Shown: one piece after another, positions 17,024 to 59,976 of the stretch
Layout of the letters: the number at the start of each line of letters is the position of its first letter
Position numbering within the stretch: position 1 is the first letter of the stretch
NCBI GenBank assembly: GCA_965243715.1
Contig: CBDEVU010000018.1
Location: forward strand, 18,473 to 82,472
Length of the DNA: 64,000 bases
Reading direction: 5' to 3'
DNA from: Candidatus Aldehydirespiratoraceae bacterium
Lineage (GTDB): Bacteria; Actinomycetota; Acidimicrobiia; Acidimicrobiales; Aldehydirespiratoraceae
Position numbers and translations under genes: made by a program
Notes under the pieces: generated by a model
Told to the model about the DNA's origin: nothing
Databases searched by the model: none
The model's input: only the letters and a program-made list of their open reading frames with translations

Positions 17024-17923
17024 ATGGGAGTTGCGACCACCGACCCAGCGGTACGGCTTGATGTTCAATCGCTGCGCGTCTTTTGCGAACTCGTTGCATC
17101 TGATGGGTTCACCGCCGCCGCCACCCGTCTCGGCGTCACCCAATCGGCGGTCAGTCACAAGATCAAGCGGCTAGAAGAACGCATAGGGGTGGACCTGATT
17201 CGGCGCGACGGCCAATCGTTCGCGGTAACCGCCGACGGTCTCGATCTCCTTGTCCATGCTAAACAGATCGTGAGGGCGCATGACTTGGCCGTGGATTCGC
17301 TTCATCGGTCGCCGCTCGTCGGCACGCTGTGCCTCGGGTGCAACGAGGAAGTCGCGGCGACCCAACTCGCTGAGGTCGCCAGTCGGTTCCGTCGTACTCA
17401 CCCCAACGTCACCTTGGAGATCAAGGTCCACGACTCGGCGTGCGTTGCGGACTGGCTGGAATCCGGCGAGGTCGACCTCGCCCTCCTTCAGGTTCTCGAT
17501 GTCGATGGTGCGGTGCGGTCGAACGATGAAGTGTGGCGGCGTGACGAACTCGTGGTCAGGCAAGGCATGGTGGCTGATTTCGATGAAGCGGAACCCGTCC
17601 CGTTGATTTCGTTTGGTCCGCGGTGTTTGTATGAGCCGTGGCTCGTGAGTGCGCTAGCCGCCGTTGGTCGTTCGTTTCGGACCGTTCTGGAGTGCCCAAG
17701 CATTCAAGGGGTTCAGGCGGCGGTTGAGGCCGGACTGGGGGTGGCGGTCCTAAACACGCCCAACCTCACCAGAGCGATGAGGCCTTGGACCGGTCTGGAG
17801 GCGGTCGAACTCCCGCCGGTGGCGTTCGTACTCCGAGTCGCCCCAAGCAGTGGCCCGCGTCCGCTCGCCGAAGCGCTACGACACCATCTTTCGGTCGCGC
17901 TCGAGAAAAGGAATCCGCCGTGA
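17024..17923 (+). CDS. LysR-family transcriptional regulator
   Basis: N-terminal HTH (LRVFCELVASDGFTAAATRLGVTQSAVSHKIKRLEERIG) plus an LTTR substrate-binding domain. Confidence 0.9.
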   Translation: MGVATTDPAVRLDVQSLRVFCELVASDGFTAAATRLGVTQSAVSHKIKRLEERIGVDLIRRDGQSFAVTADGLDLLVHAKQIVRAHDLAVDSLHRSPLVGTLCLGCNEEVAATQLAEVASRFRRTHPNVTLEIKVHDSACVADWLESGEVDLALLQVLDVDGAVRSNDEVWRRDELVVRQGMVADFDEAEPVPLISFGPRCLYEPWLVSALAAVGRSFRTVLECPSIQGVQAAVEAGLGVAVLNTPNLTRAMRPWTGLEAVELPPVAFVLRVAPSSGPRPLAEALRHHLSVALEKRNPP

Positions 17924-19478
17924 GTACTCCCGCGTCCACCGCCGCGCCTAGGGCCCGCCGAGGGCGGGGTGCTCGCCGGCAAGCCCGTACTGCGTACACC
18001 CAACGCTTTTTGCCCGAACTCGAGAGAGGTTTGCCGTACCTCGACGCCCTACTGCCGGAGCAGGTACAACTCGTCCACGACCACACGATGAGGTTGCTGG
18101 AGACAACGGGAATCGACTTCCGCGACGACGAAGCCATTGAAATGTGGAGCCAAGCTGGTTCTGGCGGGGGAGTGGCTATAGACGGCTACCGCGTCCGCAT
18201 CGACCGCGAACTTCTCATGGGACTCATAGCCACCGTGCCGAGCGAATACACGATGGTTGCCCGAGATTCGGCCCGTACAGTCTCTGTCGGTGGCCGCAAG
18301 AGCATTTTCACTCCTGCCTACGGCGCGCCGTTCGTGCTCGACTTGGAGGGCAGGCGTCGGAACGCGACGCTCGAGGACTTCGACAATTTCGCCAAGATTG
18401 CCCACATGACTCCTGCCATGCAGATGAGCGGAGGTGTGCTGTGCGAGCCGATGGACATTGCGGTCGCCCACCGCCACCTTCGCATGACGTACAGCCTCAT
18501 CAAGCACTCTTCCAAGCCCTTCATGGGCTCTGTCACCTCTCGGGAACGAGCTCAAGACAGCCTCGATATGACCAAGATCGTGTTCGGCGAGGACTTTCTC
18601 GAGGAGAACACGGTCATGACCTGCTTGGCCAACGGTAACTCGCCGCTCGTGTGGGATTCCACGATGCTCGATGCGGTGAAGGTCTACGGGGCAGCTAACC
18701 AGGCCATGCTGTTTTCGCCCTTCGTGCTGGGTGGAGCCTCGACCCCCGCGTCGACGATTGGCTCGGTGGTGCAGATTAACGCCGAAGCGCTGGCCGGCGT
18801 GGCTTTTAGCCAACTAGTGCGGCCCGGAGTTCCCGCCGTGTACGGCCAGTGGCTGGCGACTGTTTCGATGAAAACCGGCGCGCCTATGGCGGGCACCCCA
18901 GAGATCGACCATATGAACCTTCTCGTTGGACAACTGGCCCGTCACTACGAACTCCCCTGGCGTTGTTCGGGATGTGCTCATCGTCGAAGCAGGTGGACGC
19001 ACAGGCGGGCTATGAGGCCGCCCGCAATATGTACGGTGCGGTCCTCGCGGGGGCAAACTTTGTTCTCTCCACCACCGGCTACCTCGAATCGGCGCTGTGT
19101 CAGAGCTATGCCAAAGCAGCCCTCGACGGCGAGCAAGCGGAAATGTTTCGCACGTTTGCCGAGGGCATTAGGTTTGATGAACTCGATGCCGCGCTCGACG
19201 CGATGAACGATGTCGAACCCGGGGGCCACTTCCTTGGCACCGCGCACACGCTGGCCAATTTCGAACGAGCTTTTTCGATGCCTGAGTTGATGGACTGCAA
19301 CGGGTTCGATCAGTGGACGGCGACCGGTGCGCAGGACGCCAACGCCCGTGGGGCTAAGAAGTGCCAGCAACTCCTCGCTGATTACGAAGAACCAACCTTG
19401 CCCGACGACATCGACGAGGCGCTACGTGATTTCGTCGCCCGGCGAATCACCGAGATCCCTGAGACTGGCAATGACTAG
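17920..19478 (+). pseudogene. MttB-superfamily (non-Pyl) quaternary-amine:corrinoid methyltransferase, copy 1, with its reading frame broken by an apparent 1-nt deletion near 18969..18971
   Basis: Two ORFs (17785..19206 and 18849..19478) are collinear with intact paralogs 33198..34760 and 58429..59976. Joining them gives LPWRCSG|MCSSSKQVDAQAGYE versus paralog LPFRSGGQFTASKYPDAQAAYE. GTG start overlaps the lysR stop (GTGA). Confidence 0.75.
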
Positions 19479-19502
19479 CACCCCGCCTCTGCTAAGCGGA
19501 AC

Positions 19503-20471
19503 GTGTGTGTGGCGCTGTCCTCGCCCTTTGACGATAGCGGCGAAACGCTTGACGAGGGTCGCTTGGGAGACCACATCGAGAGCATGATCGACGCTGGGGT
19601 CCACGCTTTGGTGCTGTGTGCGGGTACCGGTGAGTTTGCTTTTCTCTCGGAGCCAGAGAAGCGACGCATCATTGGACTGGGTTGTGAGATTGTCGCTGGC
19701 CGCATCCCCGTTGTCGCCCAAACCTCGGCCATCACCACGCGAGACGCCATCGAACGCACCCGCGAAGCCGCTGACCTCGGCGCCGCGGCCGCCATGGTGT
19801 TGCCCCCCTACTTCGAAGGTCCACTTGAGAGGGGTGTGCTCTACCACTACGAGAAACTGGCCAAAGCGACCGACATCCCAATCGTGCTCTACAATATACC
19901 GGCCAGTAGCGGATTTGACATTCACCCCGACCTTTACCGGCGGCTCATAGCGCTGGAAAACATCGAGTACATCAAAGATTCGACCGGCGACCTCGTCCGC
20001 CTACAGAAGTTGATCGCCATTGGCGGACACGTGCTCGCGGGCACTGATCCGTTGGCTCCTTACGCGGCGATGGCGGGCGCCGCGGGGTGGATCTGGGGGG
20101 CGGCGAACGTGATGCCCCACGAATGTGTGCAGCTGTGGAATCTCATACAGGCGGGCGAACATGGGGCGGCGCTGGAGCTGTGGGCCAAAATGCGGCCCGC
20201 CAATATGTTCTTTTGGGAGAACAACGTGGAGGCGGAATACAACTCGGCGGTCAAGACGGCAACCAACATGGTTGGCCGTCGCGTTGGCCCGTGCCGTCGT
20301 CCGGTGATGCCAATGACCCGTCAGGGCCGAGTGGCGCTCCAGACAGCCCTTTCCCCGCTGCCGATCAACGGAGTCGCTCGCGACACATTGGTGTTTCGTG
20401 AGTGGGATGACGAACGCGATTGGCTGGTTCAGATGACTCATCAAGCGGGCGTGAGCCGAGCGAAAGGCTGA
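19503..20471 (+). CDS. DHDPS/N-acetylneuraminate-lyase-family Schiff-base enzyme (possible pyrroline-4-hydroxy-2-carboxylate deaminase-like)
   Basis: GTGEFAFLSEPEKRRII, YNIP, and the active-site Lys context IEYIKDSTGD. Confidence 0.75.
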   Translation: MCVALSSPFDDSGETLDEGRLGDHIESMIDAGVHALVLCAGTGEFAFLSEPEKRRIIGLGCEIVAGRIPVVAQTSAITTRDAIERTREAADLGAAAAMVLPPYFEGPLERGVLYHYEKLAKATDIPIVLYNIPASSGFDIHPDLYRRLIALENIEYIKDSTGDLVRLQKLIAIGGHVLAGTDPLAPYAAMAGAAGWIWGAANVMPHECVQLWNLIQAGEHGAALELWAKMRPANMFFWENNVEAEYNSAVKTATNMVGRRVGPCRRPVMPMTRQGRVALQTALSPLPINGVARDTLVFREWDDERDWLVQMTHQAGVSRAKG

Positions 20472-20473: not shown

Positions 20474-21967
20474 ATGAACCTCACCTTTGACCCCGTAGCA
20501 CTGGCCGCATCGGTTACTCCGCCGACCCGGATGATGATCGGCGGCCGCTCCGTCGAAGCACTCTCGGGGTCTACTTTCGCCACCTTCAATCCGGCCACCG
20601 GTGTCGAACTGGCCCAAGTGTCGCAAGGTTCGGCGGCTGACATGGACCGAGCCGTCGCGGCGGCCCGTGATGCGTTCGACAACGGGCCGTGGGGACGCCT
20701 CTCACCCGCCGACCGGCGGGGCTTGCTGAAACGCTTCGCGCTCATGGTGGAGGCCCACGCTGACGAACTCGCCGTCATCGAGTCGCTCGAAGCGGGTAAG
20801 CCCATCTACGACACGTCGACCATCGACCTGCCCGAGACAGTCAACTGTTTGATGTGGCACGCCGAGTTGGCCGACAAGATCTACGACCAAGTGACGCCGT
20901 CGGGTCTCGGTGTTGTAGGGCTAGTGGTGCGAGAGTCGATCGGTGTCGTCGGTGCGGTGCTGCCGTGGAACTATCCGCTAATGATGGCGGCCTGGAAGAT
21001 CGGTCCCGCTCTCGCCGCTGGCAACACCATGGTGCTAAAACCGGCCGAGCAGACTTCGCTGTCGACAATCCGCATGGTCGAACTAGCCACCGATGCCGGT
21101 ATTCCCGACGGTGTGCTCAACGTGGTCCCAGGGTACGGCGAAACGGTTGGCCAGGCGCTGGGCCGCCACCACAGCGTTGATTGTGTGGGATTCACCGGAT
21201 CGACCGAGGTAGGCCGTAAGTTTCTGCGCTACTCCGCGGACTCTAACCTCAAGCGGGTGTTGCTGGAGTGCGGCGGCAAATCCCCGATGGTTGTCATGTC
21301 CGATGCGGAGGATCTGGACAAGGTCGCGGCGCACGCTTGTGAGTCGATTTTTTGGAACGCGGGCCAGAACTGTAGCTCCAATTCGCGGCTGATCCTGCAC
21401 GAATCGGTCGCCGCAGATGTCATGGCTCGCATCGACGAAGCGATACACGGTTGGGTGCTGGGTGATCCCCTTGATCCCGCAACTCGTATGGGGGCCATTA
21501 TCGAACCCGCCCATCTTGACAAGATCATGGGCGCCATCGAGAGGGCTAAGGCCGAGGGGGCTACTGTGCGTTGCGGTGGAAATCGCACTCGTCGGGAGTC
21601 GGGGGGTTGGTTTGTTGAGCCCACCATCTTTGAAGCCGTCACCGCCGACATGGCGATCGCCCAAGAAGAGGTCTTTGGGCCGGTGTTGTCCGTCTCGACC
21701 TTCACCCACGCCGATGAGGCAATAGCGATGGCTAACGACACGCCTTACGGCCTGCATGCCTCGGTGTTCACGAGCAATGTGCGCTCGGCTCATCTCGCTA
21801 GTCAACGGATCAAGGCGGGCACGGTATCGGTGAACTGTTACAGCGAGGGCGACATGACTACCCCGTTTGGAGGTTACGGACTCAGCGGGTTCAGCGGCCG
21901 AGATAACGGGGTACACGCCCACGAGCAATACACCGAGACCAAGACCATCTGGATCGACTTGGCATGA
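20474..21967 (+). CDS. NAD(P)-dependent aldehyde dehydrogenase
   Basis: FTGSTEVGRK, LECGGKSP, NAGQNCSSNSR, PFGGYGLSGFSGRD. ATG lies 3 nt after the upstream stop. Confidence 0.9.
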   Translation: MNLTFDPVALAASVTPPTRMMIGGRSVEALSGSTFATFNPATGVELAQVSQGSAADMDRAVAAARDAFDNGPWGRLSPADRRGLLKRFALMVEAHADELAVIESLEAGKPIYDTSTIDLPETVNCLMWHAELADKIYDQVTPSGLGVVGLVVRESIGVVGAVLPWNYPLMMAAWKIGPALAAGNTMVLKPAEQTSLSTIRMVELATDAGIPDGVLNVVPGYGETVGQALGRHHSVDCVGFTGSTEVGRKFLRYSADSNLKRVLLECGGKSPMVVMSDAEDLDKVAAHACESIFWNAGQNCSSNSRLILHESVAADVMARIDEAIHGWVLGDPLDPATRMGAIIEPAHLDKIMGAIERAKAEGATVRCGGNRTRRESGGWFVEPTIFEAVTADMAIAQEEVFGPVLSVSTFTHADEAIAMANDTPYGLHASVFTSNVRSAHLASQRIKAGTVSVNCYSEGDMTTPFGGYGLSGFSGRDNGVHAHEQYTETKTIWIDLA

Positions 21968-21977
21968 AGGGCCGACC

Positions 21978-23294
21978 GTGACCCGAGTAACGATTCGTCC
22001 CGACAACGATCGCCAGAACGGCTGGTACGAGACCATTGGACCGCACCCCGAACCCAAGGTGCTGGAGGGCGATACTGACGCCGACTATGTCGTCATCGGA
22101 GCTGGTTTTGGTGGACTGGCAGCCGCTCGTCGCCTAGCTGAACTCAACACTGGGGCATCGATTGTGTTACTGGAAGGCGACCGAATTGGCAACAACGCGG
22201 CGGGTCGTTGTTCGGGCTTCATCATCGATCATGCCCACAACATTAGAGCCAAGAACTTCGCCGACGACCGAAGTAACGCCAAGCGCCGGATTGCGTTGAA
22301 CCGAGCGGGTCTCGACTGGCTCGACGAGATAGTTCATCGCGAGGGGATCGACTGCGACTGGCGTCGGACGGGCAAGATTCATGCAGCCGCGTCGGACAAG
22401 GGAGTGGCCCTGCTCGACCGCTTTGCCGCCTCCCTCGAAGCAGTCGACGAGGACTACTCGATGCACGACGCCGACGAACTAGAGGCCATGTTTGGTACTG
22501 GGTTCTATAAGCGGGGTCTTCACGCCCCGCATTCGGTAGTAGTGCAACCGGCTCAACTCACGATCGGTTTGGCCCAAACCATGCCCGAGAACGTTGCCGT
22601 CTACGAAACATCGATGGTTACCGACTTCGACTTTGGTCCGCCGTCCACGGTCCGTACTGCTCGAGGGTCGGTCCGTTCGCCGTCTCTCGTGATCGCCGCG
22701 AACGGCTTCGGCGAAGGGTTCGGATTATACAAGAATCGACTCCTGCCTTTGATCACCTGGGGCTCGATGACTCGGCCTATGGGGAACGATGAGGTGGCGG
22801 CGCTGGGCGGTGACGACAATTACGCCATTATTCCCGCCCATCCGGCGGGCACAACCGTGCGCCGTCGCGCCGACCGGCGGATCCTCATCCGCAATCAGTA
22901 CACGTATAGTCGCCGCTCCGATGTCAAAAAGGGTTTGGCCGCCGTTCGTCGGATTCACGAGAGGTCGCTGCGCCGTCGGTATCCGATGCTCCCGAATCTG
23001 GAGTTTGAGTATTCGTGGGGCGGGGCCCTTAGCTTGAGCCGCAACGGCGCGGGCGTGTGCGGCCAAGTCGCCCCTGGCGTCTACTCGACTATGGTCTACC
23101 AAGGGGTTGGTATGGCTCAGGGTACGATTTCGGGCAAGTACCTTGCCGAACACATGATGGGTGAAACTAATCCGGCCATGAGTTTGCTCGCCGGATCGGT
23201 GGCCCCCAGCCGAAACTTTCCCGATCCGTTCAACGCTTGGGGGGTACGCCTGAGTGTTTGCGGGCGGCGGTGGCAAGCGGGAATAGAGGAGTGA
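21978..23294 (+). CDS. FAD-dependent oxidoreductase (DAO family)
   Basis: Dinucleotide fold DYVVIGAGFGGLAAARRLAE near the N-terminus. GTG at 21978 follows the ALDH stop. Confidence 0.75.
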   Translation: MTRVTIRPDNDRQNGWYETIGPHPEPKVLEGDTDADYVVIGAGFGGLAAARRLAELNTGASIVLLEGDRIGNNAAGRCSGFIIDHAHNIRAKNFADDRSNAKRRIALNRAGLDWLDEIVHREGIDCDWRRTGKIHAAASDKGVALLDRFAASLEAVDEDYSMHDADELEAMFGTGFYKRGLHAPHSVVVQPAQLTIGLAQTMPENVAVYETSMVTDFDFGPPSTVRTARGSVRSPSLVIAANGFGEGFGLYKNRLLPLITWGSMTRPMGNDEVAALGGDDNYAIIPAHPAGTTVRRRADRRILIRNQYTYSRRSDVKKGLAAVRRIHERSLRRRYPMLPNLEFEYSWGGALSLSRNGAGVCGQVAPGVYSTMVYQGVGMAQGTISGKYLAEHMMGETNPAMSLLAGSVAPSRNFPDPFNAWGVRLSVCGRRWQAGIEE

Positions 23295-23296
23295 CC

Positions 23297-24073
23297 ATGG
23301 CTGATTGGCGGGTGGATCTGCGGGGCAAGGTGGCGGTGGTGTCGGGCGGATCGTCGGGCATGGGGGCCGCGATCTGCGAACGACTCGCCGCTTGTGGCGC
23401 GTCCGTGGTGGTCGGGGGACGAGACGTTGATCGCGCTGCGGCCGTGGTGGCTACCATCACCGCCGCGGGCGGCCAGGCAGTGGCCGAAATCGGCAACATC
23501 GCCAACTCTGCTGTCGCGGATGCGCTAATTGCCGCGGGTGTGGACGGCTTTGGCGGGGTCGACATCGTGGTGAACGCCGCGGGGGTGATCTTTCGCGCTG
23601 ATGCACTTGGTACCGCCGACGATGTCTGGCGCCGGGTGATGGCCACCAATGTTGACGGCACTTTCTTTCTTTCGCGTGCCGCGGTGGGCGCGCTACGGCA
23701 GCGAGGTGGGGGATCGATTATCAATATCAGTTCCACCTGTGGCCTAGTCGGCGCGGCGGGTATCACCGCGTACTGTGCATCGAAGGGCGCGGTCACCAAC
23801 CTCACCAGAGCCATGGCCCTCGACCACGCCGCCGAAGGCATTCGTATTAACGCGATCTGTCCAGGTTCGGTTGACACTCCCATGCTTATCTCCGAACAAC
23901 CCGACGGCACTACACGAGAGGAGGTGATGGCTAGCCATCTGCTTTCGATCCCCGAGCGCCGGATACCAGCCCCCGGGGAGGTAGCCGAGTTGGTCCTCTT
24001 CTTGTGTTCTTCGGCCAGTCGGCACATCAACGGGGCCAACCTTTCCCTCGACGGGGGCTATACCGCCCAATGA
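23297..24073 (+). CDS. SDR-family oxidoreductase
   Basis: VSGGSSGMG, NAAG, and a YCASKGAV catalytic motif. Confidence 0.85.
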   Translation: MADWRVDLRGKVAVVSGGSSGMGAAICERLAACGASVVVGGRDVDRAAAVVATITAAGGQAVAEIGNIANSAVADALIAAGVDGFGGVDIVVNAAGVIFRADALGTADDVWRRVMATNVDGTFFLSRAAVGALRQRGGGSIINISSTCGLVGAAGITAYCASKGAVTNLTRAMALDHAAEGIRINAICPGSVDTPMLISEQPDGTTREEVMASHLLSIPERRIPAPGEVAELVLFLCSSASRHINGANLSLDGGYTAQ

Positions 24074-24831
24074 CGGATTTCTCTGGTATCACCGCTGTTG
24101 TCACCGGTGGCGCCCAAGGGATTGGTCGAGCGATCGCTGATCGCTTGGCGGCCGATGGGGCCGAAGTAGTTGTTGGCGATCTTCGTGATCCAGGAGATCT
24201 TGGCCCGCGACAACGCTGGGTTGAACTTGACGTCCGTGTCGAGGCATCGGTTGCGGCGCTGGCCGCGGCGTGTGACGGCGCTGTCGGCGTGCTGGTGAAC
24301 AACGCAGGCATAATGTTCGAAGCGTCGATCACGGAACAAACCGTTGAACAATGGGACCTCGCGATGGCCGTCAACCTCCGCGGACCTTGGCTGGTGACCA
24401 AAGCTCTCTTGGCCCGCCTCACGGCTGCGCCGGGCTCGGCGGTGGTCAACGTTGGCTCCATCGAAGGCATCGGCTCCAACCCCCACCACACTGCCTATTC
24501 GGCCTCGAAGGGGGGTGTACACGGACTTACCGTGGCGATGGCCGTAGATCTGGGCCCGCTGGGCGTTCGCTGCAACGCGGTGGCACCCGGCTGGATCGAC
24601 ACGGCTCTAAACCGAGACTATATCGACCGACTCCCCCACCGCGATCAGGCCCTAGCCGAATTGGCCGTGCTCCATCCGGTTGGCCATATCGGCGACCCTG
24701 CCGATGTGGCCTCGACGGTGGCATTTCTCGCGTCGCTGGACGCTCGCTTCGTGTCCGGGCAGGTCGTGGTGGTGGATGGCGGGCGGACGAGCAAACTTAG
24801 CCTCCCAGCGTCGCTCACTCCTGATAGCTAA
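24070..24831 (+). CDS. SDR-family oxidoreductase
   Basis: VTGGAQGIG, NNAG, YSASKGGV. ATGA overlap with the preceding SDR. Confidence 0.85.
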   Translation: MTDFSGITAVVTGGAQGIGRAIADRLAADGAEVVVGDLRDPGDLGPRQRWVELDVRVEASVAALAAACDGAVGVLVNNAGIMFEASITEQTVEQWDLAMAVNLRGPWLVTKALLARLTAAPGSAVVNVGSIEGIGSNPHHTAYSASKGGVHGLTVAMAVDLGPLGVRCNAVAPGWIDTALNRDYIDRLPHRDQALAELAVLHPVGHIGDPADVASTVAFLASLDARFVSGQVVVVDGGRTSKLSLPASLTPDS

Positions 24832-32421: not shown

Positions 32422-33201
32422 ATGTCCCACGTGCAAGCCGTCGATCGAGCGCTGCTCCTACTTAGCGAAATAGGCCGAGAGTCTGGCGGATTGGTCGACC
32501 TCGCGAGCCGTGTCGATTTGGCCACGAGCACAGCGGCTCGGCTGTTGAATACCCTGGAGTCGGCAGGTGCCGTTCGCCGCAGCGACGACGCGAGCTACGA
32601 GATCGGTCCGCTGATCCAGTCCCTGACCGCCGCGCCCGAAGGTAGCCAGCGCCTAGAGCAACTAGTTCATCCCCACCTCGTCGAACTATCTACTCAACTT
32701 GATGAAGCGGCGTGCCTTGCTTTGATCTCTGGTGACGAAACCGTCACCGTCGATCAGGTTGACGCCCCCAAGCCGGTCCAGGCCGAGAACTGGACGGGAA
32801 CCCGCGTCCCCCTTCACGCTGGGGGAGCGGGTCTGGTCGCCATGGCAACCTGGGACGACGTGGAGGTCGAGCGCTACCTAAGCGGCGAACTCGTGGCGTG
32901 CTCTGCCCTCACTGTCACCGACCCGGCAAAGCACCGGTGCCGCCTCGAGGAGATCCGTCGCACCGGCGTGTGTTGGACGCACGGCGAATACGTCGAAGGT
33001 CTATCCTCGCTGTCGGCGGCCATCCAAGATGTGTCGGGTCGAGCGGTGGCCGTGCTCTACACCTACGGGCCGAGCTATCGCTATCCCGCGCCCGGGTCGG
33101 CCGAAAAGGTGGCTCGCACCGTCTGGGCCCGTGCTGAACGCATCTCCATCCAACTGGGCTGGACGGGTTCGCTTACACCAGTGCGAAACGAGGCTTCGTG
33201 A
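32422..33201 (+). CDS. IclR-family transcriptional regulator
   Basis: N-terminal wHTH (VQAVDRALLLLSEIG...LVDLASRVDLATSTAARLLNTLESAGAVRR) plus an IclR effector domain. Confidence 0.85.
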   Translation: MSHVQAVDRALLLLSEIGRESGGLVDLASRVDLATSTAARLLNTLESAGAVRRSDDASYEIGPLIQSLTAAPEGSQRLEQLVHPHLVELSTQLDEAACLALISGDETVTVDQVDAPKPVQAENWTGTRVPLHAGGAGLVAMATWDDVEVERYLSGELVACSALTVTDPAKHRCRLEEIRRTGVCWTHGEYVEGLSSLSAAIQDVSGRAVAVLYTYGPSYRYPAPGSAEKVARTVWARAERISIQLGWTGSLTPVRNEAS

Positions 33202-36051: not shown

Positions 36052-36063
36052 AAGGTAGTCCTA

Positions 36064-38619: not shown

Positions 38620-38625
38620 ACGAAG

Positions 38626-45836: not shown

Positions 45837-47093
45837 TCAGCTAATCTCGGTGATTGCTTCGGCGATCCAGCCGTCGACGAGAGCCTGGTTCGTGGCCAGC
45901 CATTCGCTCGCAATGCGAACGATTTCCTCTTGGGTGCCGTCACCGTTACTCTGCTCGACCATCAGGACCAAAATGTCGATCAGCGAAGGCTTGATCTTCG
46001 GGAAGAGCGCGCCCAAGACCGGGTTCGCTTCTAGAACCTCGGTACGGGCGGTGACCTGGATGTCAGCGGCCTTCCATCCCAACTGGCAGGGGTCGGTGCA
46101 GAACTCAGGACCAAAGCCGGAGAAGCCCTCTTCTTGGGTGTGGGCTTCGCCGCCCTCGGTTCCCACCGGGTTTGAGTCGTCTAGGATCTTGGTTGGGTGC
46201 ATGGTGAGCCAGTACACGTTGTCGCCGGGGATGAGTTTGGTGACGTAGGCGGACGGCGACCAAGTGTAGATAGCCATAGGCTCGCCTGCGTTGGCCTTAT
46301 TGAGAGCCTCTGCGATCATCGCGTCGTAACCGGCCTTGGTCTGCTCGATGTTGTTCCACTCGTAGAAGGCGATTTGGGAGGTAAAGATGTCGTCGCAGGT
46401 CCAACTCTCAGGACAGCCGAAGATCTCAGCCTTGCCGTTTCCGTCGCTGTCGAACAAGGCGACGAGTTCGGGGTCATCGTTGATCTGCTGCATGGAGGTG
46501 ATGTTGTATTCGTCGACGACCGACTTGGTAGTCAAGAAGCCTTGCACACCCGAGTTCGGGAAAAGGCCCTCGACTACGGTCAAGTAATCTCCTACGATAC
46601 TGCCGTCGGGTAGCTCAGCGGCGTGCCAACTAAAGTGGCCGGGGTACCAACTGTTGGTCCAGAAGTCCATGGAACCTTCAGCCATGGCCAAGTAAGCGGC
46701 GGACGGATCGAGCTCTTTGTTCTCCGGTAGACCGATGGTGTAGCCCATCGAGGTGAGGATCTGGTTGTAGATCTCGGCCTGGATATAGCCCGACGCCCAA
46801 GTGGCCCGGCCCATTACGAGTTCAACGCCCTCGCCAATCGTTGCGGGGTCAAGGCCCCCATTAGCGTCTTCTTCATGTTCATGAGCGTCTTCTTCGGCCA
46901 TGTCTTCTTCTTCGGCCATGTCGTCTTCTTCGGCCATGTCTTCTTCAGCCATGTCTTCTTCTTCAGCCGCGGCCGCAGAGTCGTCTTCACCTGCGTCGGA
47001 ACTGGTGTCGGTGGTTTCGTCGTCGCCACACGCCGCTGCGAACAGTGCAAACACTGCAAACAAGGCGAGCAGCATTTTGGTGCTCTTTTTCAT
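45837..47093 (-). CDS. proX: Glycine betaine/proline betaine ABC transporter substrate-binding lipoprotein
   Basis: Lipobox LFAAAC after MKKSTKMLLALFAVFA, an acidic repeat linker, then an OpuAC-type domain (WASGY, WYPGHFSW aromatic box-like). ATG 47093 is preceded by GGAGGGG. Confidence 0.8.
   Translation of the reverse strand: MKKSTKMLLALFAVFALFAAACGDDETTDTSSDAGEDDSAAAAEEEDMAEEDMAEEDDMAEEEDMAEEDAHEHEEDANGGLDPATIGEGVELVMGRATWASGYIQAEIYNQILTSMGYTIGLPENKELDPSAAYLAMAEGSMDFWTNSWYPGHFSWHAAELPDGSIVGDYLTVVEGLFPNSGVQGFLTTKSVVDEYNITSMQQINDDPELVALFDSDGNGKAEIFGCPESWTCDDIFTSQIAFYEWNNIEQTKAGYDAMIAEALNKANAGEPMAIYTWSPSAYVTKLIPGDNVYWLTMHPTKILDDSNPVGTEGGEAHTQEEGFSGFGPEFCTDPCQLGWKAADIQVTARTEVLEANPVLGALFPKIKPSLIDILVLMVEQSNGDGTQEEIVRIASEWLATNQALVDGWIAEAITEIS
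46887..46968. repeat. Imperfect 15/18-bp tandem repeats (GTCTTCTTCGGCCAT-like, 5 units) encoding (MAEED)n in the ProX linker
   Basis: Read directly. Confidence 0.85.
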
Positions 47094-47225
47094 TCGTTTC
47101 CCCTCCTGGGAATAGTGATGCCGAGTGGCATGCGCCACGCGACGATTAGAGATCATAGTGGATTATTGGTAATGGCGCGTCGTTGGCACAGATTTACCGG
47201 ACGGCAGCCGCCGTGACATACCTTC

Positions 47226-49352
47226 CTAAACTGTCTCGTGGACTCTCTTCTCGATGGCTGTGGAGTCGCGGTGGAGGACCAAATCGGCCTCGTCGTCGAA
47301 GACCTCGATCCGGAAGAACTCATTTATCAAGGACCTGCCACTCGACACGAAGAACAGGCCCGCCATCAAGACGAGGAAGGCGCCGATGCCGCTGACGTAG
47401 CCATCGTCGGAGGAGCGGGCGAGCGAGGCGATCCACGCTCCGCCAATCGCCGCGATGGAGAGACCAAGGCCGACCGACACCACACTCCAGCGCCACTTTT
47501 TGTGGGGGGCCGCGCCGAAGGCACCGGAAGCCATCACGACCGCTCCCACCCCGATCAAGCCAAGACGGATGAGAAGCGGACCTAAGCCGGTGCCAGCATC
47601 GTTCCAGCTATCGTGGATTTCCTTGCTCAGTCGCCGAGCCGAGCTGTGGATCGCCGAGATCTCCACCGCGTTCTGTGAGGTCAAGGCCGGGTTCTCGTCG
47701 GCCTCTACGGTCAGACGCTCAACCTCGGCGACGTCCTCGGGACTCAGAACTGAATTGTCGCGTTGGTCGAACGACCAACCCGACAATGAGCCGATGACCA
47801 ACACACCGATCGCCAAGGCGGCACCAACCAACTTGTGGTACTCGGTGCCTTTCGGGACTGGCCGGTGCGGTGCGTACGGCGCATCGGACAATGCCGTCAG
47901 CCCTCCGATAATGGCGATCACCGTACCGATCAAGGCCACGGTGACGCCGATGCCGTCGCTGTAGTTGAGCGCCATATTCGATGGGTTCATGGCGAAGTAC
48001 CCGATGGCACCACCGAATCCGAGGAACGCCGCCATGGTGACACCATCAGCGCTGAAGTAGCGGGGGCTGCCAACCCGGGTCAGACGGCTGAGGGCCGCCA
48101 AGATGATAAAGAGGGAGCTGCCCAAGACTATGAAGCCGAAGAAGGTTCCCCCTTCGGCCGCCAGACCGCTGAAGCTCGCACCGAAGAGATCGGCATCACT
48201 GAAACGACTGTGGCTGGTGACCATGCCCGCGTCGGTGCCCCATGTGAGAAACACCGAGACAACGCCGATGACCGCACCCACGATGGCGATCTTGAGGCCT
48301 CGGCCCTCCTTTGGCGAGATGCCAGCCGGATGGCCGCCGTAGTTCTCCTCTTCAAGTTCCGCATCCATGGCGCTATCGACATCGAGTAGTTGGGCCTGCG
48401 GGTTCGCTCGGTTAGCCCATGCCCCCCGAATCTTCTGCATGAGGCTCGCGCCGTGGCCTTCAACGGGCTGGGAGATGCGGTCGAGGGTGACCGCCACTAA
48501 GAAGAAGGCCAAACCGGCTGACGCGCCCCGTGCGACATTCTGGCTCGATAGCGCTCGGAACATGAGAGCACCAAGACCGCCCGCCCCCATGATGGCCGCT
48601 ATGCCCAACATCGAGATCGACAACAGCAAGGTCTGGTTGACGCCGGTCATGATGGCTGGGCGAGCCAGCGGGATCTGGACATCGGTGAGTACCCGATACT
48701 CCGACGCGCCGTAAGCTCGACTGGCTTCGACCACGTCTTCGGGAACTTGTCGGATACCGAGATTGGTGAGTCGAATGAGCGGAGGCAAGGCGAACACCAT
48801 CGTCACCATGGTGGCCGAAACCTCACGCAGTCCGAAGAAGAAGATGAACGGCAACATGTACACGAACGAATGCACTACCTGCATGGCATCGAGCACGGGT
48901 CTCACCACCGACCACACGGGATCTATTCGACCACAGGCAATGCCAACGGGTATACCGATGGCAACGCAGAGAATCACCGCCACAAAGATGAAGCCGATGG
49001 TCTTGGCCGTCTCGATCCAGTAACCCGGGCCAAGAATGCCGCAGAAGCTCAAAGCGACGAGGGCGAAGAGTCCGACGCGTAAAGAGCGGAACATCCAGCC
49101 GATCATGAACATCAAGAGGACAATCCAGATCCAAGGGAGTCGCACGAGGAAGTCCGTGACCAAGAGGTTCAAAAGGGTGTCGAACGGCCACTTGATCACA
49201 TCGAGGAGTCCGCCGAGTTGGTTATCAATCCAGAACACGCCCTGCTCAACCCATTCACCAAATTCGATCTCCCATTCGTCGAGGACCGCCGTTTCGTAGA
49301 TCTTAGGATTGTTGGAACCGGTTGATTCTGCTTCTTGGATGAAACTCATCAC
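47226..49352 (-). CDS. proW: Betaine ABC transporter permease (ProW/OpuAB-like, N-terminal ~300 aa) fused to a ~400-aa polytopic membrane extension of unknown function
   Basis: The BPD_transp_1 region contains the EAA-like loop (EASRAYGASEYRVLTDVQIPLARP). The C-terminal 400 aa has about 8 extra hydrophobic helices with no motif I recognise. Confidence 0.75.
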   Translation of the reverse strand: MMSFIQEAESTGSNNPKIYETAVLDEWEIEFGEWVEQGVFWIDNQLGGLLDVIKWPFDTLLNLLVTDFLVRLPWIWIVLLMFMIGWMFRSLRVGLFALVALSFCGILGPGYWIETAKTIGFIFVAVILCVAIGIPVGIACGRIDPVWSVVRPVLDAMQVVHSFVYMLPFIFFFGLREVSATMVTMVFALPPLIRLTNLGIRQVPEDVVEASRAYGASEYRVLTDVQIPLARPAIMTGVNQTLLLSISMLGIAAIMGAGGLGALMFRALSSQNVARGASAGLAFFLVAVTLDRISQPVEGHGASLMQKIRGAWANRANPQAQLLDVDSAMDAELEEENYGGHPAGISPKEGRGLKIAIVGAVIGVVSVFLTWGTDAGMVTSHSRFSDADLFGASFSGLAAEGGTFFGFIVLGSSLFIILAALSRLTRVGSPRYFSADGVTMAAFLGFGGAIGYFAMNPSNMALNYSDGIGVTVALIGTVIAIIGGLTALSDAPYAPHRPVPKGTEYHKLVGAALAIGVLVIGSLSGWSFDQRDNSVLSPEDVAEVERLTVEADENPALTSQNAVEISAIHSSARRLSKEIHDSWNDAGTGLGPLLIRLGLIGVGAVVMASGAFGAAPHKKWRWSVVSVGLGLSIAAIGGAWIASLARSSDDGYVSGIGAFLVLMAGLFFVSSGRSLINEFFRIEVFDDEADLVLHRDSTAIEKRVHETV

Positions 49353-50569
49353 ATGAACACCTCTCGCTCGAAGTTGTCTATGAGGCTCTCGACTCGGCCC
49401 ATTTCTTCCATGATGTGGCGGGGGTCGAGATTGCCGACGAGACAGCCCTTGTCATCAACGACGGCGATGGGCAGGCCCTGACCGGCCGCGGCGTAGACCG
49501 TGTTGAGGGTAGAGTGAGCCGTAGTTGATTTGAAGTCCGTACGGACTCCGTCGACAATACTGGTTTGGTCCTGGTTGGCGGCATTGATGCCGTCAGCGGC
49601 GGTGAAGACACCGGTTGGCGCGCCGTTGTCGTCGAGCACGAATGCGCCTGCTCGGTCACCGAGTTGAGTCAAGGCATCCCGTAGTGACATTGAGGCCGAC
49701 ATTGGGGCCGGTTGCAACATGATTTCGTGGACCTCTATTACGCGGCCCTGGTCGACGTCCTGCACGAACTCCGCCACGTACCCGGTGGCGGGCTCTGTGA
49801 GGATCTCCTCGGGGGTCCCGATCTGGACGACCTCGCCGTCTTTCATGATGCAGACACGGTCGCCGATACGAAGGGCTTCGTTGAGGTCGTGGGTGATAAA
49901 CAGGATTGTCTTTTTCAGTTCCTGCATGATTTCCATCATCTCGTCTTGCATCTGGCGCCGGATGAGCGGGTCGAGGGCGCTGAACGCCTCGTCCATTAGC
50001 AAGATTGGAGGATCGGCGGCGAGGGCTCGGGCTAATCCCACCCGTTGCTGCATACCGCCCGACAGTTGGCTAGGTGAGTAACCGGCATAAGCCTGCAGGC
50101 CGACGAGCGAGAGCGCCTTTAGCGATGCGGCGTCGCGCTCGGACTTATGGAGGCCCTGAATCTTGAGGCCGTAACCTACATTGTCGATTATCGAGCGGTG
50201 AGGGAACAGGGCGAAGTGCTGGAACACCATTCCGGTTTCCTCGCGGCGAAACGCCTGAAGTTCACGCCCCCCGAGGGTTTGCACGTCGACACCGTCGACC
50301 CACACATGACCGTTGGTGATGTCAAGAAGTTTGTTGACGGTGCGGATGGCGGTCGATTTTCCTGAACCAGATAAGCCCATGATGACAAAAATCTCGCCGC
50401 GAAGAACCTCAAAGTTCACGTCGCGAAGACCAACTACATGTCCGGTGCGGGCGTGTACCTCATCCTTTCCCATACCAACTTGGGAAAGCTCGAATGCTCG
50501 GCCCCCTGGCTGGGGTCCGAATATTTTATATACGTTCTCCACCTTGACGATCACGTCCGGTTTGATCAT
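49349..50569 (-). CDS. proV: Betaine/proline ABC transporter ATPase with tandem CBS domains
   Basis: Walker A GLSGSGKST, signature LSGGMQQRVGLARAL, Walker B ILLMDEAFSALD, and a CBS-like C-terminal half. ATGA overlap with proW. Confidence 0.9.
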   Translation of the reverse strand: MIKPDVIVKVENVYKIFGPQPGGRAFELSQVGMGKDEVHARTGHVVGLRDVNFEVLRGEIFVIMGLSGSGKSTAIRTVNKLLDITNGHVWVDGVDVQTLGGRELQAFRREETGMVFQHFALFPHRSIIDNVGYGLKIQGLHKSERDAASLKALSLVGLQAYAGYSPSQLSGGMQQRVGLARALAADPPILLMDEAFSALDPLIRRQMQDEMMEIMQELKKTILFITHDLNEALRIGDRVCIMKDGEVVQIGTPEEILTEPATGYVAEFVQDVDQGRVIEVHEIMLQPAPMSASMSLRDALTQLGDRAGAFVLDDNGAPTGVFTAADGINAANQDQTSIVDGVRTDFKSTTAHSTLNTVYAAAGQGLPIAVVDDKGCLVGNLDPRHIMEEMGRVESLIDNFEREVFM

Positions 50570-57494: not shown

Positions 57495-58412
57495 TCAGTC
57501 GGTGACTTCCCATGGCGCGACCCACTCGCCCGCCATGCGAAAGGAGAGCCCGGCATCGTCCTCCAGACGTTTAGCCACATGAAGTTCGCCCGCGTCGCGG
57601 CCGTAGCGCTCGGCGGCTTCGGCAAAAACCCCTTGGGCGGCATCGGTCATCACTAGGTCGCGGCCCACATGGCGCGCCAAGTCGCCGATGAGCCTGAGGT
57701 CTTTGAGACACAGGTCGAGCGTGAACGAGGGGTCGTAGTGGCCAGCAAAGATCGATGGGCCATCGTGGCGGGCTACGAATGAGTCGCCGACCGAGTCGCA
57801 GATCGCGTCGTAGAGGACCGACAATTCGACCCCGTTGGCCATACCCAGCGCGAAACCTTCGCCGATCGCCGCGGCGTGGATGAACCACAATTGGTTGGTG
57901 ACGAGTTTCACGACGTTTCCCGTGCCGAGTCCGCCACAGCGGATGACGCGTCCCATGGTTTCGAGTACGGGAGTGACTCGGTCGAGATCGGCGTCGCGGC
58001 CGCCCGCGAAGAGGGTAAGTCGACGATTGCGGGCCCCGTCAACGGCGCCGGTAACGGGTGAGTCGACGACGGTGACACCTTCGGGGGCTTCGTCGGCCAG
58101 TGCCTGCACGACCTCGCGTCGATTCGTGGTGAGATCCGCCCATAGCGATCCGGGCCGTAGCGCGGCGAGGGCGCCGCTGGCGCGCATTACCGCTTCGACA
58201 TGATCCGGGCGCGGTAGCGAGGTCAACAAGATGTCGGCTTGGGAGGCCACCACGGCAACATCGTTGGCCGTGCTCGCGCCAGCCGCGGTGGCTTCGGCGA
58301 CGGCTTCTGGTCGAAGGTCGAAGGCCACTACAGTAAAGCCCGCCTCGATCAGGTTGAGGCACATGGGGAGTCCCATGTTGCCGAGGCCAATGAACCCGAT
58401 GGTGTCAGTCAC
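57495..58412 (-). CDS. NAD(P)-dependent beta-hydroxyacid dehydrogenase (3-hydroxyisobutyrate/6-phosphogluconate dehydrogenase family)
   Basis: IGFIGLGNMGLPMCLNL Rossmann motif directly after GTG 58412. The longer ORF to 58682 runs into the mttB copy-3 gene. Confidence 0.8.
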   Translation of the reverse strand: MTDTIGFIGLGNMGLPMCLNLIEAGFTVVAFDLRPEAVAEATAAGASTANDVAVVASQADILLTSLPRPDHVEAVMRASGALAALRPGSLWADLTTNRREVVQALADEAPEGVTVVDSPVTGAVDGARNRRLTLFAGGRDADLDRVTPVLETMGRVIRCGGLGTGNVVKLVTNQLWFIHAAAIGEGFALGMANGVELSVLYDAICDSVGDSFVARHDGPSIFAGHYDPSFTLDLCLKDLRLIGDLARHVGRDLVMTDAAQGVFAEAAERYGRDAGELHVAKRLEDDAGLSFRMAGEWVAPWEVTD

Positions 58413-58428
58413 GACGATGCTCGTTTGG

Positions 58429-59976
58429 TTAGTAGGCTGCGTCAGGCATTTCCGACTTGCGCCGTGCGATGTAGTCTTGAAGTTCGGCGTCGATTGCCTC
58501 GTCCAAGCCCGGACCTTGGTATTCGGCGAGCATCCGCTTCCATGTCCGGTTGGCTCGCTGGGCCGCGGTGAGTCCGCCATCTTCGGTCCACTGTTCGAAG
58601 CTGTTGTTGTCGGCTTCGGTCGACCGGTAGAAGGCGGTTTCGAAGTTGGCCAGGGTGTGATTGTTGCCGAGGAAGTGCTCACCGTGGGGATTGCTGCGGA
58701 AGGCGTCCATGGCCTGGCCGTTCTCGGACATGTCGATACCGCGGGCGTAGACGCCCATCATGCCGAGTTGGTCGGCGTCGAGGATGAGTTTTTCGTAACC
58801 TAGGGCCAAGCCGCCCTCTTGCCAGCCAGCGGCGTGCAACACAAAGTTCACCCCCGCGTTTATGGCGGGCAGAATCGTGGAGGCTGATTCGTAGGCCGCT
58901 TGGGCATCGGGGTACTTCGACGCAGTGAACTGGCCGCCGGAACGAAAGGGCAGGCCCACCCGGCGTGCCAGCGAAGCCATGACGTTGATGGCCTGGCCCG
59001 CCTCGGGTGTGCCGAAGGTCGGTGCGCCGGTGGCCATCGACATAGACGAGGCAAAGGTGCCGAAGATAACCGGTGCGCCGGGTCTAACCAGTTGCACGTA
59101 GGCCATTCCCGACAACGCCTCGGCGAGGGCTTGAGCGGCGAGCCCAGCAACGGTGACCGGCGACATGGCCCCCGCGAGGATGAACGGCGACATGATGCAC
59201 GCTTGGTTGGCCCGGGCGTATTGCGTAGCGGCGCCGAGCATCGTGGCGTCCCAGCGCAACGGCGAGGAGGCATTGATGAGCGAGGTCATCACGGTGCGAT
59301 CCTCAAGGTCGCCGCCAAAGCCGATGCGGGCCAACTCGATAGAGTCCGCGGCTCGGTCCGCCGCAGTCACCGAACCCATGAACGGCTTGTCGCTGTACTT
59401 GAGGTGGGAGTACACCATGTCGAGATGGCGCTTGTTGACCGGCACATCGACGGGTTCACATACTGTGCCGCCGCTGTGGTGAAGGTGAGGCAGGTCGTAT
59501 ACGAGTTTCACAATGTTTTGGAAGTCCTCGATGGTGCCGTAGCGGCGACCGTTGTCGAGATCCATCACGAACGGGGAACCGTAGTTCGGGGCAAATACCG
59601 TGCAGTTCTCGCCGATTTTCACGCTTCGTTCGGGGTTGCGGGCGTGCTGAAGGTAGAACCTCGGCGCGTTCTGCTGAATGATTTCGCGGCACATTCCTTT
59701 GGGGAACTTGACGAGGTCACCGGTTACGGCCGCCCCCGCGGTGCGCCACAGGTCAAGGGCCTCGGGGAACTCCTGAAAGGCGATCCCGATCTCGGCCAGG
59801 ATGGTTTCGGCGTTCTCCTCGATCTGGCTGAGGGCGTCGTCGTCGAGCATGTTGACTGGGGGAATCTTGCGCTCTAGGTAGGCAACGGTGGCCGCGGTTG
59901 ATGAGGCCCGAGCGGCTTGTCGCCCCGCTCGCCCTCCCCCTCGACGGCCGCCGGAACGGGCTGCGGTTTCGCTCAT
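58429..59976 (-). CDS. MttB-superfamily (non-Pyl) methyltransferase, copy 3 (intact)
   Basis: 515 aa, collinear with copy 2. No in-frame TAG. ATGA overlap with the upstream activase gene. Confidence 0.85.
   Translation of the reverse strand: MSETAARSGGRRGGGRAGRQAARASSTAATVAYLERKIPPVNMLDDDALSQIEENAETILAEIGIAFQEFPEALDLWRTAGAAVTGDLVKFPKGMCREIIQQNAPRFYLQHARNPERSVKIGENCTVFAPNYGSPFVMDLDNGRRYGTIEDFQNIVKLVYDLPHLHHSGGTVCEPVDVPVNKRHLDMVYSHLKYSDKPFMGSVTAADRAADSIELARIGFGGDLEDRTVMTSLINASSPLRWDATMLGAATQYARANQACIMSPFILAGAMSPVTVAGLAAQALAEALSGMAYVQLVRPGAPVIFGTFASSMSMATGAPTFGTPEAGQAINVMASLARRVGLPFRSGGQFTASKYPDAQAAYESASTILPAINAGVNFVLHAAGWQEGGLALGYEKLILDADQLGMMGVYARGIDMSENGQAMDAFRSNPHGEHFLGNNHTLANFETAFYRSTEADNNSFEQWTEDGGLTAAQRANRTWKRMLAEYQGPGLDEAIDAELQDYIARRKSEMPDAAY

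Follow-up and report, generated by a model that had tools for sequence, protein, structure and literature searches.

Can one cobalamin-dependent methyl relay serve several demethylating enzymes in an aerobic marine actinobacterium? The question is raised by a stretch of 64,000 nucleotides (the window) of contig CBDEVU010000018.1, assigned to a Candidatus Aldehydirespiratoraceae bacterium of the Acidimicrobiales, which carries three MttB-family methyltransferase genes (copies 1 to 3, encoding MttB1 to MttB3) and one corrinoid operon. A first-pass annotation, made from the sequence alone, had proposed one shared corrinoid back end for three substrate-specific front ends. We consider it fairly probable that the window is part of a methylated-osmolyte and one-carbon (C1) catabolic island of aerobic marine Acidimicrobiales, in which one cobalamin relay would serve three MttB front ends. 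What stands firmly in that proposal is that the front ends are old and distinct, with different pockets, regulators and downstream genes, that a single relay set is visible, and that orthologs of copy 2 occur in the same operon type elsewhere; the sharing itself and all the substrates are what we infer from these comparisons.

In the scheme considered here, each MttB would bind a different carboxylate-bearing quaternary amine and would methylate Co(I) on the same corrinoid protein, from which a pterin methyltransferase would pass the methyl group to tetrahydrofolate, whereas an activase together with a DUF1638 protein would rescue oxidised Co(II). MttB1 and MttB2, encoded in separate and separately regulated operons (LysR and IclR, respectively), would feed one MtgC-like relay. 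The O2-dependent enzymes encoded in the window, namely a Rieske oxygenase, flavoenzymes of the DAO type and a CoxMSL-like enzyme, fit an aerobic host.

Three divergent MttB-family genes and their pockets

The three genes lie as follows.
17920..19478, plus strand: MttB1 (copy 1), non-pyrrolysine MttB-family methyltransferase; PF06253 in two frames, frame-broken at 18969
33198..34760, plus strand: MttB2 (copy 2), intact non-pyrrolysine MttB-family methyltransferase of 520 aa; PF06253 1-500/500
58429..59976, minus strand: MttB3 (copy 3), intact MttB-family gene, 515 aa, member of the corrinoid operon; PF06253, ortholog of S. meliloti 4yyc

Window proteins were scanned against Pfam and NCBIfam. 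The whole PF06253 profile (500 positions, 1-500/500) is matched by copy 2 (E-value 3.5e-190, 632.7 bits) and by copy 3 (6.4e-219, 727.5 bits), and copy 1 matches it in two pieces, 2-336 in frame 1 (6.2e-125, 417.5 bits) and 340-500 in frame 3 (9.2e-56, 189.3 bits); at such E-values chance is not an issue. Copy 3 was also found with PDB entry 4yyc at an E-value of 2.7e-193. The three collinear copies of about 500 amino acids described by the first-pass annotation are thus present as full PF06253 matches, with the amendments that copy 1 is split over two frames and that copy 3 is on the minus strand. Similarly, among the motifs reported as shared, DAQA.YE is common to all three, and NAEALAG..F.QLVR.G.P..YG occurs in its exact form in the first two alone, with LAEALSG..Y.QLVR.G.P..FG in copy 3. 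All three proteins and S. meliloti 4yyc further bear an Arg/Gly-rich N-terminal extension of about 25-45 residues (17920-18010, 33198-33310 and 59880-59976; for instance RRGRGARRQAR, KRKRGGGRRQR and GGRRGGGRAGRQAAR), which is absent from D. hafniense MtgB and from Methanosarcina MttB.

As previously annotated, no in-frame TAG interrupts these genes: the only stops are terminal (TAG, TAG and TAA), no internal stop or TAG occurs in any of the three copies, and pyrrolysine use was rejected on this ground. The column that holds pyrrolysine (X in 7xcl) is Cys, Cys and Phe in copies 1, 2 and 3, and none of them reaches the cut-off of TIGR02369, the equivalog model of pyrrolysine MttB (278, 318 and 244 bits against 525). 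An Rfam PYLIS_3 match inside copy 3 (58830-58929, minus strand; 39.9 bits against a cut-off of 38) starts directly after the pyrrolysine column and is best read as homology of the coding sequence to mttB, without a UAG, and not as a functional element.

The copies are 35-42% identical to each other, whereas identity to orthologs across phyla amounts to 63-64% for copy 1 (Mesorhizobium), 67% for copy 2 (L047, a high-GC metagenome locus) and 59-60% for copy 3 (S. meliloti 4yyc). A neighbour-joining tree (100 bootstraps) had 4yyc, MtgB and MttB as its only references. It yielded three clades, each with 100% bootstrap support and each with members from other phyla, 4yyc falling inside the copy 3 clade; of the characterised enzymes against which the first-pass annotation had proposed to place the copies, only MtgB and MttB are thus represented. 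Judged from these identities (35-42% among copies versus 59-67% to cross-phylum orthologs) and from the three fully supported clades, the copies are ancient paralogs and not recent duplicates.

Differences in the predicted binding pockets follow the same clades. The glycine-betaine site of D. hafniense MtgB was established by mutagenesis and a ligand-bound structure, with Y97 and F356 making cation-pi contacts and R312 and H348 binding the carboxylate, and R312 is conserved across all characterised family members (Picking et al., PMC13080624). We compared MtgB columns 97, 312, 348, 352 (Ile in MtgB) and 356, the numbering being verified on 9yce.
Copy 1 clade, 97/312/348/352/356: Y/R/S/Y/A
Copy 2 clade, 97/312/348/352/356: A/R/H/W/G
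Copy 3 clade, 97/312/348/352/356: Y/R/H/W/G, the same as 4yyc

Each signature is invariant inside its clade across phyla, and four residues before the F356 column stands a Trp in copies 2 and 3 or a Tyr in copy 1. The carboxylate-binding Arg (R312 of MtgB) was found in all three copies as well as in all 20 clade members aligned, and therefore all three copies probably bind carboxylate-bearing quaternary amines.

It is accordingly very improbable that the three genes arose by recent duplication or encode redundant isoenzymes that share a single substrate. Such redundancy could be suggested by the pockets of MttB2 and MttB3, which share R/H/W/G at four of five positions, and by R. pomeroyi, where glycine betaine co-induces two PF06253 proteins (PMC12478193). 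However, recent duplication is refuted by the low identity among copies, far below that to cross-phylum orthologs, and by the three clades with 100% bootstrap each. The copy 1 pocket also differs at three positions, copies 2 and 3 differ at Y97, and each copy has its own conserved neighbourhood. The first-pass annotation had named recent duplicates with identical predicted pockets as the outcome that would overturn its proposal; what we find instead is old clades with clade-specific pockets.

The corrinoid operon and the front ends found in it

The putative back end is encoded at the right end of the window, around MttB3, by the following genes.
57495..58412, minus strand: HIBADH-like NAD(P) dehydrogenase (Pfam, NCBIfam), last gene after MttB3; 305 aa in a sibling strain
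59973..62048, minus strand: RACo/RamA-like ATP-dependent reductive activase with N-terminal 2Fe-2S domain, 691 aa (Pfam Fer2, RACo_linker, Raco_middle, RACo_C_ter)
62073..62976, minus strand: methyl-corrinoid:tetrahydrofolate methyltransferase (MtgA/MtgD-like), PF00809 1-211/244; frameshifted at 62295, about codon 227
62973..63323, minus strand: small PF13769 ("virulence factor") protein, conserved operon member (Pfam)
63320..63943, minus strand: DUF1638 protein (Pfam; role from PMC5764234 and PMC12478193)
63940..64000, minus strand: 3' end of an MtgC-like corrinoid protein gene, last 19 codons and stop; its translation is the C-terminus of L001:9315-10004

The operon genes are strung together by 4-nt overlaps and run divergently from leuS; copy 3 shares 4 nt with the RACo gene, and the two form one string with the Pterin_bind, PF13769 and DUF1638 genes. 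The activase resembles AcsV in NCBIfam, below the cut-off. As the mtgC gene continues beyond the window end, the full operon was read in a sibling strain, siblings being at least four strain contigs of the ENA metagenome assembly ERZ26693861 that are 99.1-99.8% identical to the window, none being identical to it. There, the order is MtgC-like protein, DUF1638, PF13769, pterin methyltransferase, RACo, MttB3 and HIBADH-like dehydrogenase. The MtgC-like protein of this sibling (L001:9315-10004) has 229 aa, the domains B12-binding_2 and B12-binding, and DIHDIG as its DxHxxG motif; its gene overlaps that of DUF1638 by 4 nt, and its last 19 codons are identical to those of the window. The sibling pterin methyltransferase (300 aa) matches PF00809 at 1-243/244 and NF005719 with 360 bits (cut-off 259). 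A single set of activase, pterin methyltransferase and corrinoid protein is present in the window and 10 kb beyond, which agrees with the earlier statement that copy 3 alone, inside the corrinoid operon, sits with an activase and a pterin methyltransferase. A riboswitch that would control the operon was looked for with Rfam in the window and upstream of the operon in the sibling locus, and no match reached the gathering threshold.

Two closed relatives (3.3 and 3.4 Mb) have the same operon beside leuS, and the PF13769 gene is kept at loci L108 and L110 and in the S. meliloti cluster. Indeed, copy-3 homologs of S. meliloti and Paracoccus methylovorus (60-61%) lie beside genes for a cobalamin-binding protein, DUF1638, in part PF13769, MetF, a MeTHF:cobalamin methyltransferase and an ASKHA (RACo) protein, with bmt located 6 kb away in S. 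meliloti; this S. meliloti cluster is the MtgBCDE of Mausz et al. (PMC12478193). Since MttB3 is an ortholog of the enzyme of the alphaproteobacterial mtg cluster, it would act on glycine betaine or a close analogue.

Whether front ends other than MttB3 may use this back end is best addressed through MttB2, whose surroundings include the following genes.
32422..33201, plus strand: IclR-family regulator (Pfam), ending in a 4-nt overlap with the start of copy 2
34783..39933, plus strand: Rieske oxygenase alpha subunit, DAO-FAO_M-GCV_T enzyme (dimethylglycine/sarcosine-dehydrogenase-like) and M24 protein (DddP/creatinase-like) (Pfam, NCBIfam)
45837..50569, minus strand: OpuA/ProU-type betaine ABC transporter, with binding protein, fused permease and ATPase (Pfam OpuAC, BPD_transp_1, ABC_tran and CBS)

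The copy 2 protein is identical in three sibling strains. Neighbourhoods of its orthologs were counted over 80 metagenome loci: the dimethylglycine-dehydrogenase-like gene (DAO-FAO_M-GCV_T, hereafter DMGDH-like) follows the ortholog in 45/80, an IclR gene lies upstream in 23/80, a Rieske gene occurs in 19/80, and an M24 gene alongside MttB2-Rieske-DMGDH in 12/80. Because a DMGDH-like gene accompanies copy-2 orthologs, dimethylglycine is the expected product, and MttB2 would most likely make it from glycine betaine. The nearby transporter scored 211 bits with the NCBIfam ProX model, slightly below the cut-off of 215.

At six high-GC loci (0.71-0.72), the copy-2 ortholog is found within an operon of the order MtgC-DUF1638-MtgD-RACo-MttB2-DMGDH, whose proteins are 72-80% (MtgC) and 65-73% (MtgD) identical to those of the window lineage. 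The arrangement of one back end with several front ends appears well supported, because copy-2 orthologs fill the MttB slot of the same operon type in these high-GC relatives; this is the strongest, and a direct, comparative indication that different front ends would use the back end, and it is evidence, drawn from gene order, for an exchange of front ends between lineages at this position of the operon.

The opposite view, that MttB1 and MttB2 rely on a corrinoid protein of their own (and perhaps on another methyltransferase) encoded elsewhere, the MtgC operon serving MttB3 only, seems improbable. In methanogens, each methylamine methyltransferase does have its cognate corrinoid protein (PMC13080624), and about 75 kb are in view here, the whole genome measuring at least some 2.8 Mb. 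On the other side stand the copy-2 orthologs that occupy the MttB slot elsewhere beside a closely similar MtgC, the use of one corrinoid protein by several paralogs in R. pomeroyi and E. limosum (PMC12478193), and the copy-1 orthologs, none of which has a corrinoid protein gene in the 10 kb around it.

We give similarly little credit to the proposal that the MtgC-DUF1638-pterin methyltransferase-RACo genes serve mainly as a split methionine synthase, like those of Phaeobacter and Ruegeria, to which the MttB paralogs would be add-on methyl feeders. MtgC and MtgD have a dual function in R. pomeroyi (PMC12478193), and genes for a sulfite reductase, two Cys_Met_Meta_PP enzymes and an alpha/beta hydrolase are present between the copy 2 and copy 3 clusters. 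Against it, no gene for a homocysteine S-methyltransferase (MtgE/Bmt) was found in the window or 10 kb beyond, and none of the PF02574 type among the annotated genes of this region. A methionine-synthase role would, moreover, be compatible with one relay serving three front ends.

Several further observations were made around these two clusters. Sulfur-assimilation and homocysteine-synthesis genes (40897-45727 and 51042-53205, plus strand) flank the betaine transporter and encode parts of sirohaem synthase, a sulfite/nitrite reductase, a rhodanese and the Cys_Met_Meta_PP and alpha/beta hydrolase enzymes mentioned above; a relation to the methionine-synthase link of Ruegeria MtgC/MtgD is suggestive, with no MtgE found in the window or 10 kb beyond. 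A fusion of PabB and PabC (aminodeoxychorismate synthase/lyase, folate synthesis; 53202-55007, minus strand) lies beside the folate-dependent demethylase genes. A second B12-dependent system (3007-5953, minus strand), consisting of a split methylmalonyl-CoA-mutase-family enzyme (533-aa catalytic and 133-aa B12-binding subunits) and a MeaB GTPase chaperone, raises the B12 demand of the region. One closed relative of 3.45 Mb has an MttB2-type gene together with its DMGDH-like partner (L110:15218-19452) only 8 kb from the MtgC-MttB3 operon, with a GMC oxidoreductase (choline-dehydrogenase-like) and an MFS transporter in between.

Between the copy 1 and copy 2 clusters, a serine-cycle-type block (26591-32347, plus strand) encodes an HpcH/malyl-CoA-lyase-like protein, malate--CoA ligase beta (665 bits on NF010647, cut-off 604) and alpha, and phosphoenolpyruvate carboxylase, which fits the assimilation of C1 units derived from demethylation. 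The M24 protein (38626-39933, plus strand) is nearest to the dimethylsulfoniopropionate (DMSP) lyase DddP (448 bits, below the cut-off of 600), and a GcvT-family protein (55001-56152, plus strand) to the DMSP demethylase DmdA (290 bits, below 410); because both scores are below cut-off, DMSP use in this Acidimicrobiales lineage is only a lead. Finally, the gene of a Nuo51-type flavoprotein precedes that of a 289-aa protein (346-2963, plus strand) in which a formate-dehydrogenase/NuoG-type subunit is represented only by its N-terminal Fe-S domains, with no molybdopterin domain behind them; this pair adjoins copy-2 orthologs at loci L044 and L045.

The MttB1 operon and its broken frames

MttB1 is placed in an operon of another kind.
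17024..17923, plus strand: LysR-family regulator (Pfam HTH_1 and LysR_substrate), ending in a 4-nt overlap with the start of copy 1
19471..20471, plus strand: DHDPS-family gene (Pfam DHDPS), readable only from the GTG at 19503 owing to a 2-base insertion at 19500-19501
20474..24831, plus strand: aldehyde dehydrogenase, DAO-family FAD oxidoreductase and two SDRs (Pfam), the conserved tail of the MttB1 operon

The regulators assigned earlier, LysR before copy 1 and IclR before copy 2, are those observed, each overlapping its MttB start by 4 nt. A LysR gene precedes copy-1 orthologs in most Acidimicrobiales loci, and the order LysR, MttB1, DHDPS-like, aldehyde dehydrogenase, DAO, SDR, SDR is kept in about 15 metagenome-assembled genomes (MAGs) of Acidimicrobiales and partly in one of Gammaproteobacteria. 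On plasmid pM0123d of Mesorhizobium amorphae, the copy-1 ortholog (64%) lies beside a ProVWX betaine importer, LysR and GlxA regulators, two SDRs, a hydantoinase/oxoprolinase and an M24 protein, with a block of FAD oxidoreductase, DHDPS, aldehyde dehydrogenase and GntR nearby. Searches of PDB and NCBIfam returned no specific function for the copy 1 neighbours, only generic DHDPS, aldehyde dehydrogenase and DAO matches. The trio of DAO, DHDPS-family and aldehyde dehydrogenase proteins is reminiscent of D-hydroxyproline catabolism, and for this reason a proline-derived betaine is a lead for MttB1, which would act on a betaine other than those of MttB2 and MttB3.

The MttB1-type clade, represented in Acidimicrobiales, a Gammaproteobacteria MAG and Mesorhizobium, has Ser in place of the carboxylate-binding His and Tyr in place of Trp in its pocket. 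As a tentative suggestion, on balance rather doubtful, this clade might be a specificity of the MttB superfamily not yet characterised (for instance for hydroxyproline betaine, used aerobically via the shared MtgC/MtgD), in a strain that is losing the pathway.

Two variable sites border this operon. A DUF222/HNH endonuclease gene (15797-16912, minus strand) lies just upstream of it, where CoxL/CoxS-like genes are found in other Acidimicrobiales MAGs, which suggests a local rearrangement or a mobile insertion. Downstream, the acidic repeat EAMSEVE... (25054-25121) of a DM13 gene (24875-25561, plus strand) is hypervariable among sibling strains, with in-frame indels of 12, 15 and 18 bp.

The first-pass annotation overlooked that copy 1 and the pterin methyltransferase are both frame-broken in the window sequence. 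Copy 1, with 1559 nt, has a length not divisible by 3 and cannot be one open reading frame: one base is deleted at 18969, about codon 351, which turns the GGGG of the sibling into GGG (18969-71), so that frame 1 ends in ...LPWRCSG and frame 3 takes over from MCSSSKQVDAQAGYE..., at about 18972. The sibling gene is intact (1560 nt, 519 aa; P0001), the repaired window sequence being 100% identical to it. The deletion is absent from 20/20 GTDB orthologs, each of which aligns as one unbroken segment, and the sibling copy 1 proteins in the public cluster are full length (519, 515 and 519 aa). In the DHDPS-family gene, the 2-base insertion (AA) at 19500-01 splits the N-terminus MTxxPLLxGVC, which is in frame in the sibling and in orthologs. 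In the pterin methyltransferase, a 1-base insertion at 62295 swaps the canonical C-terminus (...GLPNRHHITGTFLAMAMGAGMTSAIMNP...) for out-of-frame sequence, by which the Pfam match shrinks from 1-243/244 to 1-211/244 and positions 212-244 are lost; this insertion is absent from three sibling strains. The sites 18969 and 19500-01 were compared with one sibling contig and 62295 with three. The possibility that copy 1 is read across its break by programmed frameshifting or by recoding was rejected, as the sibling has one more G and a continuous frame, and no slippery heptamer is present.

These three indels are either strain-specific decay or assembly errors. The closest GTDB genomes are marine Acidimicrobiales/Acidimicrobiaceae MAGs with a protein identity of at most 85%, and the comparison was made with siblings over about 56 kb, leaving out window positions 1-7.9 kb, which had no exact protein match. 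The window differs from a 2.8-Mb sibling contig by 54 synonymous, 13 non-synonymous and 2 intergenic substitutions, a ratio (54:13) that points to genuine divergence under purifying selection and not to assembly noise. Coding indels between strains are all multiples of 3, save the three frame-breakers specific to the window. Truncated products (428 aa, which is copy 1, and 339 aa) exist in the public collection, and therefore the breaks are present in the deposited assembly.

Somewhat short of an even chance is left to a real loss of the pathway in this strain, MttB1 being a pseudogene and the truncated methyl-corrinoid:tetrahydrofolate methyltransferase leaving a non-functional back end, whereas sibling strains of the community would keep it. 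Besides their absence from the siblings available at each site and, for copy 1, from the 20 GTDB orthologs, with full-length sibling proteins, the indels stand in a good assembly with real divergence, where the remaining coding indels are all in frame and the truncated products are part of the deposit. All three also fall inside the two MttB operons, that is in about 13.5 of the roughly 56 kb compared. Conversely, the 18969 indel shortens a homopolymer (G4 to G3), as sequencing errors classically do, the two indels of the copy 1 operon are separated by just 530 bp and may reflect one locally bad assembly stretch, MttB2, MttB3, RACo, DUF1638 and PF13769 are intact, and a divergence of about 0.2% is too low to show relaxed selection.

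The reading of one relay with three front ends has to be held against these breaks and against other findings. If the indels are real, the system does not work as described in the window strain, with both the pterin methyltransferase and MttB1 frame-broken. The strict D. hafniense tetrad Y97/R312/H348/F356 is present in no copy (copy 3, Y/R/H/G; copy 2, A/R/H/G; copy 1, Y/R/S/A), a mismatch that lowers the identification as a D. hafniense-type MtgB and not that of an enzyme acting on a betaine. From the likeness of their pockets, which among the five positions compared differ only at 97, MttB2 and MttB3 could be redundant glycine-betaine enzymes. Within plus or minus 10 kb of copy-1 orthologs, the lack of a corrinoid protein gene extends to every locus examined. 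The window contains neither a MetF-like methylene-tetrahydrofolate reductase nor an MtgE/Bmt homolog, unlike the alphaproteobacterial clusters, and in the part of the genome beyond the 75 kb in view, more corrinoid proteins, activases and pterin methyltransferases may be encoded.

Relation to known systems and meaning

Cobalamin-dependent betaine demethylation has long been regarded as anaerobic chemistry. In 2025, however, it was shown to be a major aerobic route of glycine betaine in marine Alphaproteobacteria (PMC12478193), and one MtgC/MtgD with up to seven PF06253 paralogs was demonstrated genetically in the aerobe Ruegeria pomeroyi, with co-induction of RamA and of DUF1638 (Mausz et al., 2025; PMC12478193). 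A RamA-like protein and DUF1638 had already been tied to corrinoid reactivation (Price et al., 2018; PMC5764234).

The closest system is MtgBCD(E) of R. pomeroyi and S. meliloti (PMC12478193), with which the window shares PF06253, MtgC-type, pterin-binding methyltransferase, RamA/RACo-like activase, DUF1638 and PF13769 components, a copy 3 that is 59-60% identical to S. meliloti 4yyc, in a 100%-bootstrap clade and with the same pocket residues, several PF06253 paralogs per MtgC/MtgD, and serine-cycle and betaine-transport genes nearby. It differs by its host, Acidimicrobiales and not Pseudomonadota, by a tight co-directional operon with MttB3 at the end, without MetF2 and with no MtgE/Bmt in view, by LysR and IclR regulators in place of GlxA-type ones, and by its frame-broken pterin methyltransferase. 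D. hafniense MtgB/MtgC/MtgA (2qne, 9yce; PMC13080624) belongs to the same superfamily and follows the same three-component logic, R312 being found in all copies, Y97 in all but copy 2, and H348 in all but copy 1; however, identity is only 31-42%, F356 is Gly or Ala in all three copies, the N-terminal extension that they share with 4yyc is absent from MtgB, and D. hafniense is anaerobic.

Similarly, Eubacterium limosum MtqC/MtqA with MtpB, MtcB, MtyB and MthB combines one corrinoid protein and one tetrahydrofolate methyltransferase with several MttB-family front ends (PMC12478193, PMC13080624), in an anaerobic acetogen, and was compared by layout. Methanosarcina MttB/MttC/RamA (7xcl) has the same Pfam family, TIM-barrel homology and a RamA-type activase, whereas the window copies are 23-27% identical to its MttB, have no UAG/pyrrolysine and reach 244-318 of the 525 bits required by TIGR02369. 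Finally, in the split methionine synthase of Phaeobacter inhibens (PMC5764234), as in the window, the gene of a corrinoid protein precedes DUF1638, a RamA-like activase and a distinct module for pterin binding, whereas no homocysteine-binding module is seen here and the window operon carries an MttB-family gene.

The modular layout is already established in aerobes, because of the R. pomeroyi demonstration (PMC12478193), and the locus reveals no new kind of system; what is new is that Acidimicrobiales carry this known machinery. The first-pass remark that the layout is poorly documented in aerobic Actinomycetota is dated, the layout having been shown in R. pomeroyi in 2025 and 5% of ocean mtgC reads being assigned to Actinomycetota (PMC12478193). 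A full-text search of the literature found no description of it in Acidimicrobiia. Protein searches returned thousands of close homologs in Acidimicrobiales MAGs, and the locus is thus common in nature and undescribed for Acidimicrobiia.

The locus presents the same machinery in marine Acidimicrobiales, as a tight operon with three deeply diverged front ends. Its remaining interest lies in the uncharacterised MttB1 clade, in the exchange of front ends at the operon slot and in the three window-specific frame breaks, which, if real, would represent a strain-level loss of a B12-dependent pathway inside one population. The three clades, with their distinct pockets, are candidates for a wider substrate range of the MttB family, and the locus offers a handle for attributing ocean betaine turnover and B12 demand to Actinomycetota.

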